The notes under the pieces were generated by a model. That model saw nothing but the letters and a program-made list of their open reading frames with translations, was not told where the DNA came from and searched no databases. Position numbers and translations under genes: made by a program. Below are positions 1 through 58,621 of a stretch of DNA of 64,000 nt, piece by piece (the first letter of the stretch is position 1; each line of letters begins with the position of its first letter). Source of the stretch: Haliotis rufescens (taxonomy: Eukaryota); the NCBI RefSeq assembly GCF_023055435.1, contig NW_025964001.1, forward strand, positions 45,074,001 through 45,138,000, in the 5' to 3' direction.

Positions 1-2529
1 GGTCTCGCAGATACGTTTGACATTTTTGGTTCTTTTTACCATTTTCCCGTTCGATTTCCCCTACCAGGCAAGTTTCACACATGGTGTATGATCTGCAAAT
101 ATGACCTGTTTACACTACAGGTAGGTTACTGATACGTTTGCTTTGATACCTGTTATTACGGAACGGTAGAAAGGCGATCGTTACCCTGTTCCCAACAACT
201 GGCGCCCGCCTGTTGTCATGGTCATCGGGTCTCTCCAGCAACTAACCGTCCAAGCGAGGGCTTAGACAAAGCCAGGGAAGAATGGAAATTATCTCCAATG
301 TCCTGTGATAACTTCAGTCCTATGGGGAAGGATGCCGACGTCACCAGAGCAACCACGCCGAAGGTATTAGACAGCGTTGTCGTTGCTGTCCCTGCTTTTA
401 AAGACTATGCAAAGACATTCTTACGGATCAAGCATTATTTATTGCAATAGAGGCAGAAATGTGTCCTGCGGGCTTGGGGGACTCCTCTCTTTGAAGGTTT
501 TTAACATAAATCTCTTGACGACCAGGATAAGGTTTCGTTCCGTCGCCACCTAGCACATTACGATGTCTCCTGAGTGGAGCGGATTTGCTGTTGCAACGCG
601 GACAAATCTCCTCTCGGTCCTGTAAATATTTCAACAACGTCTCGAGAAAAAATCCCCCCGTCCAAACGATATCAGCTCTCCGTTTTCTAAACTCGTCTCG
701 ATGCGTATCAGAGAGACAAAACTGGTTTACGTGCCACGGGGCAGGTGTCCGAGTCTTGAAGAAGCTGAGACATCTTCAGATTACACCAACACTTACTACA
801 CACGCCCAATTTTAATTTCCGAAAGTTGTAGGTAATATCTCAGAACCCGATGGGTGACAACTGTTTTGCAGATGTTTTTTTTTAAGGCTCGAAGTAACAA
901 GCAGCTTCCATTTATCACCATCTTGCGTCGAGTGTTTTTAGATGCTTGTGAAATCACTCCTTTCATCGCCTCATTCCCAGATTCCGAGTTTGTTGGCACA
1001 TATGTCTCAAACATAGATTTGTCCATTTGATTACACATTAAAATATGACTAAAAAGTATTTACCCGTAGAACCAAGAGTCAAACAAAGACCAAAGCAGAA
1101 AATGCATGTTCATTCATCGTATTGCGAATAAACATTCACAAAACAGGGAAGAAATAAGTTTGTGGTACATCATGTAATAGTCATTTGTTCAAATTAAAGA
1201 TTCAAACGTTCCCAAGTCATAGTTACATTGCTTCTTTGCTATAATTGATGACGCATCCCACTGTAATAACGTTTCATTAAGGTAGACTGTTTCAGAACTC
1301 AAGAAAATGGCTTTCTTTTCTACAACGTACAGCCAAATGTTGTCCAGATTTAAGTATTTGCATTCATTACCGTCAGTATCCGTTGAAGAGACGCTGAAAA
1401 TTAACGAAACGCCCGATAATTGCCGAATGAATTTTTGACGGAAATGTCCGATCCTTTTATCAGTGCTGATAATATTCATACCGACTGCATAACACATAAA
1501 AACGGTGATCCCAGGCTCAAAACGCCACGGCATAACCATGCTCGAGGATTACAGTGCCAAATCTTAAATTGTTCTGACAAACGGTTGCGGATACAACCCT
1601 CGTGATTGATGAAGGGACTTTATCTTTTATCTTTTTGCATAGGATTACATGATACAGCGAGAGATGGTTAGCGGGGTCGTGAGCAAGCTGCGGAGGAGAG
1701 TAGTGAGATGGAGTGATGTGTCCGACCAATCAAAATTAGCCACTGTCACCAATGAATCATTGCGCAGACCCGTACGACTCGTGAAAAGACGTCATCGTAG
1801 GATTATCAAGAACAGGGTGAATTAAAGGTGATTTCAGCTTCAACGTGTTGCATTATCTAACTAAGGTAATTCGCATGATAGATCGCAGAACTCAATGCGC
1901 TACAGTTACATAATCGCCTTTACGAGTGATATTTATATCGGCGATTAGATTCACGTTCTTAATGGACAGCCATTGATAGGGAGGAAAAGGCCCGTATAGA
2001 AACCAAATGGCCAACAGTGAAAACTGAACTGATGTACACATACGGGACTTAAAGAGTGTCAAAATGAAGATGTTTATTATACAACATAGTTTTGGAGGTC
2101 GTGGTCCAGAGAAGAGTTGTATTGCATGTTAAACAATTATGCTCCTTCCTTATTCTTGAGAGTAATGAGTACCTTCAGAGTAAAGCTTTGTTCAGCTGAT
2201 TAACAATCTCTTTTGTTCACGTCATTGTTCGGAATGTACGTGGAGTTTGTTGGGAAGTTCATGTCCTTGTGCAATGAGCCGATACCCCATGGATGTAACT
2301 GTCAACAATGATATAAGGTACAGCAAGGTACAGCAAGATGGCATCATAGTTTGAGAAATATAAGTGTGACGTTCAAACCTGCCTGGATATTTAGACATAA
2401 TACTTTGCAGTACAAGAACTCTCAGATTACATTCACAAATACGCGTACAGTGGAAATGCGACATAACGGCGAATCTAAATTAGTGATTTAATTTAACCAA
2501 ATGTTGGAAAACTGCCTAATTTAAAGGAT

Positions 2530-2815
2530 ACCCGTGACGATCCGGGGTAGAATAGGTCTTCAGCAACCCATGATTGCCGTAAAAGGCGAGTATGCTTGTC
2601 GTAAAAGGCGAGTATGCTTGTCGTAAGAGGCGACTAACGGGATCGGATCGTCAGACTCGCTGACTTGGTTGGTGCATGTCATCGTATTCCAATAGCGTGC
2701 ATCGATGCTCATGATGTCTATCGCTGAAATTGTCTGGTCCAGACTCGATTATTTACAGACCGCCGTCGTATTGCTTGAATATTGCTTAGTGCGGCGTTAA
2801 ACAACAAACAAAAAA
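2530..2815 (+). mobile_element. Family B short retroposon (no tRNA head, (AAAC)n tail), copy B1, with three tandem 22-bp hairpin modules
   Basis: Starts ACCCGTGACGATCCGGGGTAGAATAGGTCTTCAGCAACCC and ends GAATATTGCTTAGTGCGGCGTTAAACAACAAAC. Alignable by eye along its length to five other copies in the window. Possible decayed TSD AATTTAAAGGA/AATGTAAAGAA. Confidence 0.88.
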
Positions 2816-37167: not shown

Positions 37168-38385
37168 TCTTTCCGGGTTAGCTGTTACACACAATCCAGA
37201 ATATGTTTAGCCCCAAAACGTGCCAGAATTAAGGGACAAGGAACGCGCTCAGGTTAGTGCTTGATCTCATCACATTGTTTTACAGTGCATGTACCATGCC
37301 TGTTATAAATGACAGAACACACGTTTTGGCAGTTTGTGGACGACATAAACACATCCTACTTATACATGTAATGACGTGGGGCTAACGAGTGATCACAGCG
37401 CCTGATATATAGCTGATACATATAAGAATTATATATGGATCATATATTGATATATCATGAATGGTATATTGATATCATTTGATGAGGATCGGGTAGTCGA
37501 GCCCCGATGGCATAGATTCATTCACTGATGGGTTTGGTAAAAAATATTATTTACAGTCGTGAAAGTCCATTATTACTGACAGTATTCACAGTATTAAACA
37601 GTATTCAGTCACTCTGTGCAATACACTTCAACGAGTGAGGCGATTGTATGAAGTATGGTTAAATAAAGCAGATCGTGTAGCTACATGTTTCAAGGAATGT
37701 GTGAAGTAAACAATAACACATACATAATCTTGAGCCTGTTGAAATCAATATTTGATATACAAGGTTATCAGCAGTAAACATACGGACAGGGTGGTGACAA
37801 TATCTAGCATTGATGTGCCAATCCGGTCTCACAATGTGTGATAGATCTGTCATGTTTAGCTGTTTCTGTCTAAGAATTACAAACAGTCGTTTTAGCATAA
37901 ACACCACTGTTGACAGACCTCGGTGGCATTGTACCCACACAGTCCGGGAGTTCAACTCTCCTTTGAAAACTTTCCTCTTTTTGTATTTCATTTTGCAGTG
38001 AGGTTACATTTTAGTCACTGCGTATTATTATTGCCATTAATAACTTGATTGCCTACACCACACCACAAAATCACACACACGCGCGCACGCAGGCACGCAC
38101 CCGTACAAACACACACACACACACATTAAATCACAGTGATATGAATATGCCAAACGGATCCTGTTTCTATAACAGGTGTGAACTAATTATTCCTCTAAAA
38201 TGTTTGTTGTTTTACGCCGCAGGCGCCTGCTATATGACGGTGTATTTTGGCCAGACAACCTAGCGGACGACAGCACGAGAAGGGTCCCTGGCAGTCCGTG
38301 TCGATGACTGTCAGTCAGCCAGGTCGCACATCACACATATCCTATCTTCAGTTTACTCGCCTCTGAAGACAGGCATTGGTGCTAA

Positions 38386-38541
38386 TGAGTGAGTGAGTGA
38401 GTGAGTATGGTTTTACGCCGCCTTTAGAATATTCCAGCAATATCACGTCGGGGGACACCAGAAATGTCCATGTCGGGAATCGAACCCGGGTCTTCGGCGT
38501 GACGAGCGAACGCTTTAACCTCTTGGCTACCCGACCGCCCT
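38386..38541 (-). mobile_element. Family A tRNA-derived SINE, copy with internal deletion
   Basis: Reverse complement of the 41160/53790 copies, lacking most of GGTACAATGTGTGAAGCCC. (GAGT)n tail at left. TSD GGTGCTAATGA (38378-38388) / GGCGCTAATGA (38543-38553). Confidence 0.93.
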
Positions 38542-40465: not shown

Positions 40466-40739
40466 CTTGTTTGTTTGTTTGTTTGTTTGTTTGTTTGTTT
40501 ATTTGTTTGTAGTTTTTACGCCGCAAGCAACAATATTCCAGCTATATGACGGCGGTCTGTAAATAATCGAGTCTGTACCAGACAATCCAGTAATTGATAT
40601 GATGAGCTTCGATCCACGCAATTGGGATACGATGACATGTATCAACCAAGTCAGCGAACTTGACCACCCTCTTACGACAAACATAGTCACCTTTTGCATG
40701 GGTTGCTGAAGACCTGTTCTACCCCGGATCTTCACGGGT
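40466..40739 (-). mobile_element. Family B retroposon, copy B2
   Basis: (TTTG)n tail at left and 5' end GACCCGTGAAGATCCGGGG at right. Perfect 13-bp TSD GTCATCGCATCCA (40453-40465 and 40741-40753). Confidence 0.93.
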
Positions 40740-41159
40740 CGTCATCGCATCCAGGTGGCATAGGTCGATGTTCATACTATCAACCACTGGTTTTGGCTTG
40801 AATATTTACTGGATGCGATGACTCTTGCTGACTACGCCGGATGACTAAACTCTCCCACTCTCACTAACAACATTCATGGAATGTGATGTATGTGTACGTT
40901 GTCATAGCTGTCAACATGTATATGATGCGGAGACATACAAACAAGTACAAAGACGTGTCTGTGATGTTGATGCTGCCTTTGCAGCGAAGATGTAGTGAGG
41001 GACTTCAAACATGTATTTATAAGTAGCCGTAATTGCAAACATTTGTAGAATTACTTTTAATATTATTATAATACTGGGTTGTGGAATGACAACACATTGT
41101 TCAGTACATCTACACACGAACCTCGCTACTGCGGACCTTGCTAATTCAGATCAACAGGA

Positions 41160-41333
41160 GGGGCGGTCGGGTAGCCTAGTGGTTAAAGCGTTCGCTCGTC
41201 ACGCCGACGACCCGGGTTCGATTCCCGACATGGGTACAATGTGTGAAGCCCATTTGTGGTGTCCCCCCGCCGTGATATTGCTGGAATATTGCTAAAAGCG
41301 GCGTAAAACCATACTCACTGACTCACTCACTCA
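41160..41333 (+). mobile_element. Family A tRNA-Asp-like SINE, full length
   Basis: A box TAGCCTAGTGG, B box GGTTCGATTCC, GTC anticodon-like loop (CTCGTCACGC), about 90-bp body, (ACTC)n tail. TSD TCAGATCAACAG (41146-41157) / TCAGATCAATAG (41331-41342). Confidence 0.95.
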
Positions 41334-41528: not shown

Positions 41529-41680
41529 AGGGATAGCTTTGTGGTTAAAGCATTCGCCCGTCACGTCGAAGGCCCGGTTTCGAATGCCGTCAAAGGTACA
41601 ATATGTGAAGCCCATTTCTGGTGTCGCTCGCGGTGATACTACTGGAGTATTGCTAAAAGCGTCGTAAAACAGTATTCACT
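41529..41680 (+). mobile_element. Family A SINE, older diverged copy
   Basis: GTGGTTAAAGCATTCGCCCGTCACGTCGAAG...GGTACAATATGTGAAGCCCATTTCTGGTGTC...TATTGCTAAAAGCGTCGTAAAACAGTATTCACTC is collinear with the 41160 copy but has many substitutions. Confidence 0.88.
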
Positions 41681-42714
41681 CCGATGTTGCGTGTGGATCA
41701 GTGCAACTATCATCACACATTTGAATAACGGATATGACATGTTGTGTGTGTATCCGATGCCATACAGGCAGGGCCCAGCCTGAGTGGTAAGTGATACCAC
41801 ATAGCATATGCATAATGCACTGCATTCTGCCATTAAAGCCTTGTGACGAATAAAAGAATCCAATATCTCTTAATCTTTCCGCCTGGTTAACCAACAATCG
41901 TGCATTATCTATACCATCGTCAACATGCTTCTTTTCTTTACGCCGTTCAAATAATGGGGGATATTGATAATTTCAGTTATCAGGAGAATTTCTTTTGAAT
42001 CATTTTTTGAAAATTCTGCAGCGCCATTAATTTTTCACAGAAACTTGATACTTTTACGCCGTGGAGCCTTGGGTTTTAATTGCTCACGGTTAATCACGGC
42101 ACGCTTGGGTTGTTCTTCACAACGAACCGCGTTCTCGGTGCCATTCAATGCCCAGTGTATTCAAGATATCGGGCTAAAGCGTTTGAGCGTTGCCTTGTTC
42201 ATCCATTCATGCACCTCGTGTTTTCCGCACCCATACAATAGTTTGTGAAAATCCTTTCTCCCAGATATCGAATGTGTATGTTTTAGAAGGATGAAAAAAG
42301 GCTTAATAGTTCTGGTTAATTGTGTAGCGCGTCCGCCGCAAGGAGCTGACGGTGAAGAAATATGGATCATAAACGATCAATTTAACGGATTTATTTTTAG
42401 AATGTGGTACTTATATCAACATCAATATTATAATATATCAGATATGTCGCACGTGGAAGGTGCGAAGTTCACACTACCTACATGCTAACATTACTCTCAC
42501 TGGTTGAAGTTACAGTTCCAAGATGTCGGTATAAAGAGGCAAGGCTGGCAACATTTAAATGTTACCTCCTCATTTAAATGTTCAGGGTCAGTCCTTTTCG
42601 TTAAAAAGAATAGTGTTATATTGTGTTTCATTTGATTCTTTTAAAAAAACATTCAAAAACGGTGTTATGTATTTATCTTTCTCTGTACGAAAATAGTGGT
42701 TCAGGATGGTCAAT

Positions 42715-43886: not shown

Positions 43887-44126
43887 ACCCTTATCCGGGT
43901 TAGAACGGGTCTTCAGCAACCCACTTTTGTCGTAAGAGGCGACCTACGGGATAGGGTTGCCAGAGTCGCTGACTTGGTTGATGCATATCTTCGTATCCAA
44001 ATTGCGTAGATCGATGCTCATGACGTCACTCATTGGATTGTCTGGACCAGACTCGACTGCCGTCATATAGCTGTAATATTGTTGAGTGTAGCATTAAACA
44101 ACAAACAAACAAACAAACAAATAAAC
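43887..44126 (+). mobile_element. Family B retroposon, copy B3 (single hairpin module, 5' end altered or truncated)
   Basis: TCCGGGTTAGAACGGGTCTTCAGCAACCC...GTCGTAAGAGGCGAC...ATTAAACAACAAACAAAC. ACCCTTA on both sides may be the TSD. Confidence 0.88.
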
Positions 44127-44174
44127 ACACTTTAGACCCTTAAGCAAATCGACTGATAGATCAGTGATGATTTG

Positions 44175-46184: not shown

Positions 46185-46459
46185 GTTTTGTTTTGTTTGT
46201 TTGTTTATTCTTTAACGCCGCACCCAGCAATATTCCAGCTGTATGACGACCGTCTGTAAATAATCGAGTCCGGACCAGGCGATCCAGGGATTGGCATCAT
46301 AAGCACTGATCCACGCAACTGGGACACGCTGACATGCGTCAACCACGTCAGCGAGCCTGACCACCCGATCCCGCTAATCACCTCTTACGACAAGCATTGT
46401 CGCCTTTTATGACAAGCATGGGTTGCTGAAGACATATTGCAACCCGGATCTTCCCGGGT
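46185..46459 (-). mobile_element. Family B retroposon, copy B4 (two hairpin modules)
   Basis: Reverse strand reads ACCCGGGAAGATCCGGGTTGCAATATGTCTTCAGCAACCC...GCTGGAATATTGCTGGGTGCGGCGTTAAAGAATAAACAAAC. Sits between GGAGGTTGT-type and GTA-type simple repeats. Confidence 0.9.
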
Positions 46460-46593
46460 GGTAGTGGTAGAAGCAGTAGTAATAGTAGCTGTAGTAGTAG
46501 TGATAGTAGTAGTAGTTGTCGAGCTGTATTAGTGGTAGCTGTAGTAATAGTAGTAGTAGTAGTAGTAGCTGTAGAAGTGGTAGTAGTGGTAGC
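46460..46593. repeat. Imperfect (GTA)n microsatellite running into an assembly gap
   Basis: GTAGTAGTA with GTG/GCT/ATA interruptions up to the first N. Confidence 0.93.
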
Positions 46594-47397: not shown

Positions 47398-47430
47398 TTC
47401 TGTTGTCCAGATTCGAATACTTGCTGGTCG

Positions 47431-47680
47431 ACCCGTGAAGATCCGGGGTAGAAAAGGTATTCAGCAAACCCCACGATTCCTGTCAAAGGCGACCATACTT
47501 GTCGTAAGAGTCGACTAACGGGATCGGGTGGTCAAGCTCGCTGACTTGGTTGATGCATTTTATCGTATCCCAATTGCGTGGATCCTCATGATGTCAATCA
47601 CTTGGTTGTTTGGTCCAGACTTGATTATTTGCAGACCGCCGTCATATAGCTCGAATATTGCTAAACAACAAACAAACAAA
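47431..47680 (+). mobile_element. Family B retroposon, copy B5 (two hairpin modules, short 3' deletion)
   Basis: Starts ACCCGTGAAGATCCGGGGTAG and ends in (AAAC)n. TSD ACTTGCTGGTCG (47419-47430) / ACTTCCTGGTCG (47680-47691). Confidence 0.93.
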
Positions 47681-50600
47681 CTTCCTGGTCGCCGTGATAC
47701 AGAGTTTACCTGCATGATTGTAGTTGCTTTACTCATATTTTCAATTCTCAAGAAATAACTTGAAAATACAGTAATTAGTAAACTCGGATATATGCCCATT
47801 ATAAACCACAGACACCAGACCCTACACAACCCCCCTCCCATGTAATAATGATATCACGCCCTTTGACACCCAATCCGATGAGAAAATATTCCCCAAATGA
47901 CTTTCAGTGACTCAGTTCACACTATAAACAATCATCAGTACCGTTTTACCAGACAGAATTCACTTCTTAGGGTATCAAAGAAATATGATCGGATTAAATA
48001 GAATACGTCTTTTCGGAGTAACCTCTCATCTAGATTCGATCGAATGATTTTAGTCAACAATCAACCTCCGTGAACTCAGATTCCTCGGCTTTGCCGATTG
48101 CCTCATAAATAAAGAAGTATGTCTGTAATCAAACAATTGTCAAATTTCATCGTCTACGTATGTTGTGTCTTGCCAAACAAGCCCAGTAACAAGATTAATC
48201 GGAACAGAAGTGAGTAATTTGGAAAAACTCCATTTCTGATAACACTATGTTCCATTCCCATTCCTCGTCATGTTAATTACTGTGTGTGGCCATGTTGTTT
48301 GTGAGACGTTGTCATTCACACGTCATCAGCGACTTATTCAGGACAGATTGCGTCTTTCTCGATAAACTATTTTAGTGGGTTTTGGGGGTGTTTTATATAT
48401 AAAACAATGTAAGCCGCATATACAACGTAAGCCAGAGCGGAGACAATGATTCGTAGGTAATATGTCACATGTATTTATTTGTTTTCTTGATTGTTTATTC
48501 GTTTGATTGATTATTTTTAATTCATTCATTCAATTATTATTCAATCATGAGTCATAATTGAGTATAATCAGCTTTTTATTAATTTTGTATTTCCCTTTCT
48601 ATATTCATGTAAATATTTATCTTTCTATCTGTGGCAATGAATTATTCAATTAATGCATTATTCATGTATTATTTATGTATCTATCTTTCAATCTACTTGA
48701 CAGTCTATTATGTTTGTGTGTTTAGAGGGGGGGGGGAGTTAAAATTCAAAATATTCAATTTTTTATGGACCTAAAATTTCTTTTGATGATTTATTCGGCT
48801 TAATATTCTCCATAAACTGCATACTTAAAGTGTTTCAACATTGAAATAGCTCAGTAATTTACTATTCATTGATTTTGTATGTAAATGAATTATCATGAGC
48901 AAGGACGTGGGGAGTCATCACGTTATACTTTCTAATTTCAGTAATAAAGTGTTCTAGTGACATAAAAACGGAAGACCCACTACAAAAGGTCACCAAATCG
49001 TTGTCTAAACACACTTACAAGATCGCTTGTAAAAGGTCATTGTTTTGTTTTTTCGTTGCCCTGACATGCTCAGCTGTCAATCAAAACTAATACCAGTTCC
49101 TATTTTGTCATTTTAAATACGATGCCTGCTACGCCTTGCCGATATTGCAGCGAAAAAGTTGACGGAAATTGCCGATTTTCACACTTATATCCAGCAACTC
49201 GAAATCGGAATCTCTTTTAACAAAATGTCAATTTCAGCTGATGAAAGCCCATATATTCGTTATTTTCTCGCACATCCGTTCAATTTGACCGCGCGTGCCA
49301 AAGTTAACGGACTGATTGCCATCGCCCATCCAACCCCGTTCTTCTGGATCAACGGAATTATGAGAGCAGCCATTTTGAACTTTCTGACAGGCATGATAAG
49401 AGTGTGAGGCAGTATCAAAACTGTCCACTTACAAACAGAATATATATCGCTGTTGCCAAAACACCCACGTATTCCAGATAATAATAATATGACGGGATTA
49501 TAAATGCTTTTAGAAAAATAAGATTGAGACAGAAAATGTAAAAAATAGGATTTCGCACCGTCTTGACGCTGACACGTTCCCCGTGTTCTCCGGAATCGCT
49601 AGAAACCGTCAAAGGGAGATGCACCTTTGATTAAAACGTTAAATTCCTGTTTCAGACTTGATGCTAAAATCTCAATCTTGCCCTGATAAATATAATTGAG
49701 TTGATAAGGACATCGAATTATTTTTATCGAGTCTTATTGAAGGCGCCACGGATATAGATTTTTGAGAAGGAACGCTATCGAACTCATTTGCATAGTTAAT
49801 AACTGATTGCGGCCCTCGACTCTCGAGATGAGTACTTTGTGACTGCCTGGGCTACGAATGCCCCGATAAGTATCATGTTTTGATGAGGTAATTTACATAT
49901 CAATCTGGACCCTGCCTGCAATACTTGTAGCAAAACAGGCCATTCGTCTTTGAGCAGCCCTGTGATAATTATACACGACTCTAGCCGGACATGGCCTGTT
50001 CAAGTCTATGGTGTCTAGGGTCGATTGATGTTGCGTGCTAGTTCCACTACCGTCGACGCCATTTTGGCTAGCAAAGCGAGAAAGCCCTGTGTTCGTCACA
50101 TTACGTTATGGGCTATTGGCGCAATTAAAACCCCAAGGATGGCGCAACTATCAGTTTACACCTGGGTTCGTTAACTCGGTTTATGTCAAAGTTGACACGA
50201 TAAGGGGAGGGGGAGGAGGAGGTAGGGAGGGGGTACCCCTTGGTTCCCTTACATCAGGAGACGACTACCGTTATGACTTACAACAAGAGTCAGATTTAAC
50301 CTTTCACTCATTTTTTGCTAGGGTTTCAAAAAAGGATGGTTGTACAGCTTAAATGGAATTGTCGAAATTAATGCTAAATACCGAAAAATGGTTGGATGTT
50401 AATGTTGTCAATGCGTTGTACTCACCATCACATACATCTGGGAGCATATTTTATATTGTTTCTGTATTGATTGAGACATCGGATAGAGTTTGATTTGGCA
50501 TGAATCCAGGTAATGCCATCGTCTTATATACTAGCTGTGTGTATAGAGTTAAAGGTCATACTCATTAGTAGTCAGTATAGCCTTGAAAATGTCAACACAG

Positions 50601-53600: not shown

Positions 53601-53789
53601 TATGAATATGTTGACAGCTGATTCATGGTAATGATTACCCATTACCTTTGGTACGAACGATTACGCTCTTTTCTCCATCCTTCTTTCATTTTTTGTATCT
53701 CCAATTCATAATGGTGTTCTGCCCTCTGTTTATACTTGTGTTACGTTAACGTGTTTTATCACTGTGTTATGTTCATCTCTCTGCTGGCC

Positions 53790-53960
53790 GGGGCGGTCGG
53801 GTAGCCTAGTGGTTAAAGCGTTCGCACGCCACGCCGAAGACCCGGGTTCGATTCCCGATATGGGTACAATGTGTGAAGCCCATTTCTGGGGTCCCCCGCC
53901 GTGATATTGCTGGAATATTGCTGAAAGCGGCGTAAAACCCTACTCACTCACTCACTCACT
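53790..53960 (+). mobile_element. Family A tRNA-derived SINE, full length
   Basis: Near-identical to 41160-41333 with A and B boxes intact. TSD CTCTGCTGGCC (53779-53789) / CTCTGCTGACC (53959-53969). Confidence 0.95.
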
Positions 53961-54077
53961 CTGCTGACCACCCCAATCACACGGTCACTTGTTGAACCTA
54001 GGCTGCCACACTTAGGAAGCAAAACAATTATTTCAATATTTCTTTCGTTGAATAGTTACTTGGGAATATTATCTTCT

Positions 54078-57263: not shown

Positions 57264-57504
57264 ATTTGTTTATTTGTTGTGTAACGCCGCAATCAGCAAT
57301 ATTCCAGCTATATGACGACGAAAATAATCGAGTCTGGACCAGACAATCCGGTGATTCACATCATGCGCATCGATCTTCACAATTGGAATACGATGATACG
57401 ATGCATCAACCAAGACGCCCAGCTTGACCACCCGATCCCGTTAATGGACTCTTACGACAAGCATGGGTTTCTGAAGACCTGTTCTCGCCCGGAATCTTCA
57501 CGGG
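57264..57504 (-). mobile_element. Family B retroposon, copy B6 (single hairpin module)
   Basis: Reverse strand CCCGTGAAGATTCCGGGCGAGAACAGGTCTTCAGAAACCC...GCTGGAATATTGCTGATTGCGGCGTTACACAAC. TSD TGCTTTTTAT (57254-57263 and 57507-57516). Confidence 0.92.
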
Positions 57505-58621
57505 GCTGCTTTTTATGAGTATCTATCATGACGAATCCAGACAGTGACGGTTTATATGTGCATTAAATGTTATAATTTTTATATAAAAATGAATGAGTTC
57601 TACACTATCTTATTTGGTATTCATTTTCATTGTCTAAAATATTGAGGAATTAAATGACAAACTAAAGCAGACTCGCTCACCCACTCACAGCAGCTAAGCA
57701 CGACTTATATGTCATTCAATAGGCTCCATAATCGGAGTCGGGAGAAAGTAATGTATTTCTTTAAAATACGTTTTTCATCGAGAGAAAATATACTTTTACA
57801 AATATGCATGTAATAAAAGTTCATACAATTTCAAGGGTCTGCTCCCCTCAATTTGGGGTCGGTTAGATAATCGGAAACAGTATTATGCTCTTATGGACCT
57901 TCCCGTTCGGTAAATATATTTTTTTGAAATGTAATGTTGGTGAACAAAGGTTTTGAAATGTGGCCATAACGTTAACTACTGATGTCCACAGTGTGATATG
58001 GGTATATCTGACAGTCTGTCGTTATTTAGGGGAGAACGTGAATGGCAGTTTATGGGTCAAAGGAAGTTGTGAAACTGATAAATCTTCCGATTCTACTCAA
58101 ACATATATGGTTTATGTTTCACCAGGCAGCGTACAAATTCCACGTGAGGAAAAACTACCTCTTTTATATTTTCTGTTTCATCACATATTGTCACTCATCC
58201 TTTTTTTCATATTTTACTCTTTTTTTTATTTTGTTCGTTTTATGTTCTAGCGTAATTGGAAGTAGTTAACACGTACAAAAAACTTCATTCTGGGAGCGGA
58301 TATATATCATAGATATATCATATATCTCCCTATACACGACACGCCTTATTGCCGAATGATGGACGCCGGCGATCTGAGCCAGTACCTGTCTCAGTGTATA
58401 TACAATGTGTTCCAGGGGTTTCACGCTATCCATGTTTACACCCAAGTACAAACTTTGCATGTAGAGTTAAGGTCTTAAACTGTCAGAAAGGGGATAGCGT
58501 GAAAATCTATGGAATGAATAATAATAAATAAGTTGTCTGTAAGCCCCAATATCTGTAATGCTATTTATATGTTTCTCCGAAAACGTTATAATACTAATAT
58601 GCCTTTCTTTGGTTGCCTCGC

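Follow-up and report, generated by a model that had tools for sequence, protein, structure and literature searches.

Family B copies and their 5' ends

The window analysed here is a stretch of 64,000 nucleotides of Haliotis rufescens DNA (contig NW_025964001.1, positions 45,074,001 to 45,138,000, forward strand), and it carries six copies of a SINE family, family B. Copy B1 (2529..2815, forward strand) consists of a head, a body and a (CAAA)n-type tail, and no TSD was found for it. Copy B2 (40466..40740, reverse strand) starts with GA-CCCG directly inside a 13-nt TSD, and copy B5 (57264..57506, reverse strand), which has a single hairpin, is flanked by a 10-nt TSD ending 2 nt before CCCG. Copy B4 (47430..47684, forward strand) also starts with GA-CCCG, its TSD candidate being only a 7-nt match. 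Copy B3 (46190..46460, reverse strand) yielded no TSD, while copy B6 (43893..44130, forward strand) is 5'-truncated; the 3' ends of both are approximate. The initial annotation had five of these copies (2531 and 47432, forward; 40738, 46458 and 57504, reverse) share a start immediately inside the TSD where one is clear. All five do begin with CCCG, but the element really begins 2 nt before this, at the G of GA-CCCG, and it is at this GA that the TSDs of B2 and B5 abut the element.

The start is sharp throughout the genome. Exact matches to a 24-nt head pattern number 16,607, against none for the reversed control, and GA precedes 10,843 (65%) of them. Among 54 distinct copies the base at -1 is A in 46 and that at -2 is G in 43, with no majority at -3, and exactly GA separates TSD from CCCG in 4 of 9 TSD-bearing copies. 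Searching with the body only returned 30 loci, 11 truncated at scattered places and 19 full-length, although one of the 19 is the query itself and 5 fall into two groups with common flanks. The upstream flanks of the full-length copies are unrelated, and there is therefore no tRNA head in family B. The fixed 5' end proposed earlier thus proves real, and family B does not qualify as a tRNA-headed SINE with A and B boxes, no tRNA match having fallen on its copies. Three small-RNA runs gave 6, 94 and 10 reads, a head coverage too low to show a start.

Some further observations concern the family and its surroundings. An antisense small RNA of ~31 nt with a 5' U, piRNA-like in these features, piles on the B body at L023:1671-1701 (reverse strand), with 63 and 9 molecules in two small-RNA runs. 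A more diverged head subfamily (L259, L265 and related loci) shares the B body and has a G-rich S2 strand (defined below) and two extra bases after AGAAUA. The window also holds a tRNA-headed SINE family (38380-38540, reverse strand; 41161-41333; 41543-41681; 53788-53961), whose 3' tail resembles those of family B and of the LINEs described below.

SINEs of this kind are already known. LP-SINEs were described in gastropods and bivalves by Matetovici et al. (2016; PMC4758252), and their ~70-bp head is common to the 5' ends of Nimb-17_LMi, I-3_DR and RTE-9_CPB. The part of that paper devoted to the head proposes a promoter function and cites the ingi/L1Tc ribozyme as a parallel; it gives neither a structure nor a link to viruses. 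Family B resembles the LP-SINEs in its variable TSDs, its 3' tandem-repeat tail, its length near 255 bp and its head, which is homologous to LINE 5' ends and replaces a tRNA or other small-RNA head; no upstream head is common to the 19 full-length loci. The head corresponds by eye to the 'Nimb-17 homology' sequence, with which it shares blocks in the rows of their Suppl. Fig. S2. From these sequence features family B is likely an LP-SINE, the comparison having been made by eye with the scallop rows. The initial annotation missed this prior description of the head type.

Predicted fold of the head

The head motif is predicted to fold as a double-pseudoknot RNA of ~75 nt, composed in order of a 4-bp stem S1, a U, a 7-bp stem S2, an AGAAUA loop, a hairpin P3, a hairpin P4 (GUCG-UAARAGG-CGAC) and a second, weaker pseudoknot. 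In copy B1, with all elements on the forward strand, the S1 strands are CCCG at 2531..2534 and CGGG at 2543..2546. Between them lie L1 of pseudoknot 1, a single near-invariant U (2535..2535), and the 7-nt 5' strand of S2 (2536..2542), which pairs with 2555..2561 with one mismatch in this copy. Loop L3 (2547..2554) is expandable in its 5' part and ends in the conserved AGAAUA. P3 follows S2 directly (2562..2574; typically AGCA, loop ACCCA and UGCU, with one mismatch in B1), and in the predicted fold its loop pairs with a run of G residues downstream of the last hairpin. That hairpin is P4 (2620..2634; GUCG-UAAGAGG-CGAC), with an invariant stem and a near-invariant loop, and it is followed by a UAA linker and CGGG (2635..2641), the predicted 3' strand of pseudoknot 2. 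In carriers generally a single base lies between P3 and P4, and a UAA-type linker follows P4. In copy B1 the sequence shows the 22-nt P4 unit twice more in tandem, both times imperfectly (2576..2612). The one-hairpin consensus proposed earlier thus describes only some members: single-hairpin copies such as B5 exist, with 531 exact pattern matches genome-wide, but the P4 unit is otherwise tandemly repeated, most fetched copies having two P4-type hairpins and the copy at 2531 three (2576-2634).

The pairings were scored on 15-19 carriers that were hand-picked, some of the metagenome ones for their fit, and some of which are related, against shuffles that ignore phylogeny. In an anchored alignment of 16 carriers S1 pairs in 62 of 64 cells and S2 in 105 of 112, values reached by 0 of 20,000 partner shuffles in each case, and all seven S2 pairs show two-sided change in a MAFFT alignment of 15 rows. 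Across 19 carriers P3 has no linker after S2 and, in fixed register, pairs in 52 of 57 cells where shuffles give 34.9, with its first pair varying among A-U, G-C, C-G and U-A. Pseudoknot 2, between the P3 loop and the strand after P4, scores 207 over the same 19 carriers, against 158.6 (sd 9.4) in shuffles, none of 3000 of which reaches it; it is weak or absent in three viral carriers (L039, L047 and L194). The model as a whole pairs 91.1% of cells, with a covariation of 0.53 against 0.185 shuffled, in the 15-row MAFFT alignment, one row of which is misaligned, and RNAalifold recovers S2, P3 and P4 unprompted from 15 rows. P4 is not proven by covariation, because it never varies. By eye, the scallop rows of Suppl. 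Fig. S2 in PMC4758252 carry the AGAAT and CGTAAGAGGCGACTAA blocks of family B, and fit S2, P3 and pseudoknot 2.

This model departs in part from the four helices first proposed for the head. The partners of the GAAGA(T)CC/GGTCTTC helix were right, with the register corrected to GAAGATC/GGTCTTC, 7 bp without a bulge, which is S2; the GTCG/CGAC hairpin pairs in 16 of 16 rows but is invariant, so that covariation cannot vouch for it. The other two fare no better than shuffles across 16 carriers: the GGGT/ACCC pseudoknot pairs in 35 of 64 cells (32.4 shuffled) and the CCCGT/ACGGG closing stem in 38 of 80 (37.0 shuffled). In the 15-row MAFFT alignment that full fold pairs 68.6% of cells, and its closing stem and pseudoknot 48-49%. 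In the earlier fold the two C-rich strands had each been given the other's G-rich partner. Another early idea, pairing of a 5' CGTG with CATG, was replaced by the S1/P3 model.

The motif has no match in Rfam 15, whether in the window (gathering thresholds), at 6 loci (E<=5) or at 13 loci (E<=1), and HDV, twister, hammerhead and pistol readings were rejected by eye and by Rfam. The initial suggestion of a fold other than HDV, twister or pistol is supported. The pistol architecture consists of a short stem whose loop pairs downstream, with an A-rich linker next. The motif shares the stem, the downstream pairing of its loop and the A-rich linker, but differs in the later order of helices, and its bases after S2 covary with P3 instead of forming a conserved catalytic motif. 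With HDV-like LINE ribozymes it shares a double pseudoknot at a retrotransposon 5' end and a C-N-R-A linker after the last hairpin. In contrast to them it has no P3/L3/P1.1 core, and it does not match the HDV set of a 7-bp P1 from G1, P3/L3, P1.1, J4/2 and a nested double pseudoknot; a P3 loop of only 2-12 nt leaves no space for a P3/L3 core.

Carriers among LINEs and viruses

A pattern excluding family B retrieved, in the same genome, full-length LINEs that are ~6.2 kb long, encode endonuclease, RT and RNase H domains and are, by this domain content, I/Nimb-like. Their 5' regions match the first ~62 nt of the family B head at 78-79%. Together with the covarying fold, this bears out the earlier description of the head as a LINE-5'UTR-type structured leader.

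Two sister subfamilies differ in what precedes the motif. In subfamily a the TSD is followed by a 57-nt minimal HDV-like fold (L282:6914-6970, reverse strand; also L283, L284 and L343-L372) and then at once by the motif. The leader has P1 with 7 of 7 bp from G1, P3 with 3 of 3, L3 UCCUCGU, GG and CUAA, and its G1 follows the TSD; against RF02682 it scores 28.5 bits (E=0.0023), below the gathering threshold of 44. With the structure and the G1 start of HDV-like elements, it is a predicted ribozyme, standing separately upstream of the motif in this one subfamily. The junction of leader and motif has about 1,100 pattern matches in the genome. The part of PMC5786205 drawn on here lists six LINE clades with 5' HDV-like ribozymes (R1, R2, R4, RTE, Ingi as well as LOA), without Nimb or I, so that the putative ribozyme on an I/Nimb-like LINE falls in a clade outside that list. 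The 5' ends of subfamily a reach G1 in 45 of 49 copies (17/19 and 28/30, two of the 28 judged by eye); the remaining 4 are cut short at other points, and no copy begins at the edge of the motif.

Subfamily b is 91% identical to subfamily a over 236 nt and 78% in the ORF2 protein; it lacks the ribozyme, and its ORFs are intact in three copies. Of 10 junctions examined 7 are clear (2 of the clear ones overlap), and in 5 of these 7 the element starts with TC-CCCG flush with the TSD and shows no additional G. In the ribozyme-less families measured, conservation ends past position -2, and the bases there differ between families: those at -2 and -1 are GA (43 and 46 of 54), AC (9/11), GC (8 and 9 of 9) and TC (11/11), and a fifth, mixed set has G or A and then C. 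Most of the ribozyme-less families examined thus start with a purine, the TC-starting LINE being the exception. In 45 metagenome loci the distance from S1 to AGAAUA varies from 20 to 154 nt. Because the element's own first bases differ and this distance varies, the 5' end is tied to S1.

The metagenome scan gave at least 121 loci, most of which belong to repeat families that are dispersed and have simple-repeat tails. In L104, L062, L090, L123 and related loci simple sequence has expanded L3 to 70-150 nt, both pseudoknot stems and the 5' boundary being kept; an earlier impression that some metagenome families had lost pseudoknot 1 was wrong, L3 being merely expanded. GTDB gave 8 matches, 3 without the fold and 5 with it. 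The latter lie in repeat-like or host-associated contexts and are for that reason probably eukaryotic contamination, leaving no convincing prokaryotic carrier among the 8. Animal-type repeats with the motif occur in contigs filed as bacterial genomes, probably by contamination (L220:2974-3200, L221:2978-3100 and L217:96-200); in L220 the motif is followed by a stretch resembling the V-SINE domain, and then by a (GAA/GGA)n tail.

An 18-mer from the last hairpin, which holds no information on the pseudoknots, matches 5 viral contigs from 4 viruses, and pseudoknot 1 fits in all 5 at 10-11 of 11 pairs. Three further viral carriers came from wider patterns (L194, L195 and L209/L340); chance matches without the fold were dropped (13/18 and 11/16), and L178 was excluded for a weak score (22 bits). 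Six carriers are RNA viruses or likely so, judging by the domains they encode: RdRP_3 in L047, L049 and L340, RdRP_4 in L195, a tetravirus-type capsid in L039/L048 and an S-domain coat in L037. In these six, 6-123 nt separate the last ORF from S1 and 89-183 nt separate S1 from the end of the contig, which may be incomplete; the motif is in tandem in L037 and L340. The spacing from the last ORF is too variable for a stop-codon readthrough signal. The seventh viral carrier, a DNA-virus contig of 212 kb, encodes an NAD-dependent ligase and has a Bro-N gene; its motif is intergenic, sense to the next ORF and ~215 nt ahead of it. In L037 (6138 nt) the coat ORF precedes a 1217-aa ORF without a Pfam match, whose neighbours in the Atlas, viral RdRp clusters, provide no more than a lead. 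L191, a relative of L047, stops before its 3' UTR.

These distributions bear on the two functions first suggested for the head, self-cleavage and an internal promoter. Because no subfamily a copy starts at the motif and the motif stands in viral 3' UTRs, fast self-cleavage or promotion at the motif is disfavoured. That the fold is a new self-cleaving ribozyme, cutting 2 nt before S1, seems to us unlikely. The sharp, structure-anchored 5' end and the many invariant unpaired bases would suit such an activity, and by eye the 3' half resembles an HDV P1/P4/J4-2/P2 skeleton with its C-N-R-A linker; in the HDV-bearing LINE, moreover, the cut site overlaps ribozyme stem P2 and could be masked. Yet cleavage would sever the 3' 89-183 nt of six RNA-virus genomes and would be redundant beside the canonical HDV-like fold that the sister LINE keeps upstream, and the motif has neither the P3/L3 catalytic core nor a match to any Rfam ribozyme.

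The internal DNA promoter, the LP hypothesis of Matetovici et al. (PMC4758252), would leave the RNA fold to some other purpose. The 5' position of the head, the purine starts and a possible cap-derived G in family B agree with it. We nonetheless regard it as distinctly improbable: a DNA promoter cannot account for RNA viruses that carry the motif, the compensatory pairing speaks for selection acting on RNA, the spacing to the conserved blocks is variable, no start is seen there in a LINE with 91% identity over 236 nt, and the extra G is missing from most of the clear junctions of the ribozyme-less LINE.

A possible barrier to 5'-3' exonucleases

The reading we favour, which could equally well prove right or wrong, is that the motif represents a new class of 5'-3' exonuclease-resistant RNA (xrRNA), acting against Xrn1 or Xrn2 and setting the 5' end of the element. 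From the sequence, distribution, covariation and 5' boundaries observed here we infer each functional step as follows. A family B copy would be transcribed passively within a host transcript; an exonuclease would trim this RNA and stall ~2 nt before S1, by the fold alone or with a bound factor; and an I/Nimb-type 3' tail would recruit the LINE protein, so that a new site could receive a copy of the trimmed RNA. In viruses, what remained after such a block would be a short 3' subgenomic RNA. The invariant loops may have a possible second role in cap-independent translation. Such a barrier fits all three settings, unlike a promoter or a fast ribozyme.

Several properties of known xrRNAs are consistent with this proposal. 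They lie at the start of flavivirus 3' UTRs and in intergenic regions, and occur in tandem (PMC11702639, PMC8374639), as the motif does in viruses, where its placement is in 3' UTRs or intergenic, and tandem in two of the six RNA viruses. The Xrn1 stop site of ST9a is at the base of the first helix (PMC11702639), and the element start near S1 can be likened to it, as both sit at that position. An HDV fold with a 5'-OH end has itself been proposed to resist 5'-3' decay and so to shield the RNA (PMC11331408), from which it would follow that subfamily a keeps G1.

By structure the motif stands outside the xrRNA classes considered, as it does outside the HDV-like ribozymes, and xrRNA-like action is a prediction from the model. 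It resembles class 1/2 flavivirus xrRNAs in lying just after a stop codon, in its tandem copies and in its two pseudoknots, but has no three-way junction accompanying these, no sequence similarity to them and no Rfam match. The J1/2 bulge of the P1/P2 stem, the L2B loop and the AGY motif of class 3 (SCNMV, PLRV and ST9a; PMC11702639) or coremin (PMC10321173) xrRNAs are absent; compared with those RNAs the motif has an L2 of 0-1 nt, a long L3, the extra elements P3 and P4 and a second pseudoknot, and it is present in transposons too.

Other observations weigh against a barrier. Pseudoknot 1 is in the predicted fold of the H type, with its long L3 and an L2 of 0-1 nt, and Xrn1 was not halted by classic H-type frameshift pseudoknots, not even by ones with an added hairpin (PMC10321173). 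Because ordinary pseudoknots of this type do not stop Xrn1, the motif could resist it only with the help of a bound factor or of additional contacts made by the invariant P4 loop. The purine starts of most ribozyme-less families suit transcription starts or a cap-derived G, and the absence of motif-edge starts in all 49 subfamily a copies also means that, with the ribozyme in place, RNAs are seldom trimmed back to the motif.

The fold might instead mainly bind protein or ribosomes, as a cap-independent translation enhancer or a site for the LINE protein, the 5' end then being a by-product of the complex or of integration. It precedes ORF1 in LINE RNAs that are likely uncapped, lies ahead of an ORF in the DNA virus and occurs in the 3' UTRs of tombus-like viruses, its loops are invariant, and an R2 protein binds a pseudoknotted RNA (PMC12222951). 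We nevertheless rate this as rather unlikely, since the motif is kept in non-coding SINEs of several lineages, LINE-protein binding cannot account for the viruses, and binding by itself does not predict a constant 2-nt offset.

The fold, its viral occurrence and the arrangement of ribozyme plus motif appear to be new. None was found in Rfam 15 or in the searches of the open literature, and a prior description may exist elsewhere. In the open literature, searches on the motif sequence returned unrelated papers only; those linking xrRNA with retrotransposons, reviews and prime-editing papers only; those linking LINE, Xrn1 and pseudoknot, one unrelated method paper; and those combining motif, virus and transposon, none. 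For the LP-SINE names only the 2016 paper was relevant.

In its fullest form the proposal is of a new xrRNA class that would be the first in cellular genomes and common to several non-LTR clades, +ssRNA/dsRNA viruses and a large DNA virus. LINEs and SINEs could then multiply without a promoter or a ribozyme, their full-length RNA being carved from read-through transcripts by the decay enzymes of the host; we put this forward tentatively and think it somewhat likelier to fail than to stand. In the section of a 2021 review that treats the question, xrRNAs are said to have been characterised in viruses only, and cellular ones are predicted (PMC8374639). The motif is a directly testable candidate for a cellular xrRNA, with natural variants at hand, and the sister LINEs with and without an upstream ribozyme form a natural pair for a clean test. 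If the proposal is true, non-LTR retrotransposons would have a third means of fixing their 5' end, beside the internal promoter and the HDV ribozyme, and the 70-bp LP head that was noted but left untested in 2016 would be accounted for. Even if the motif is not an xrRNA, a covarying fold of ~75 nt in animal transposons and unrelated viruses, absent from Rfam 15, would constitute a new structured RNA family.
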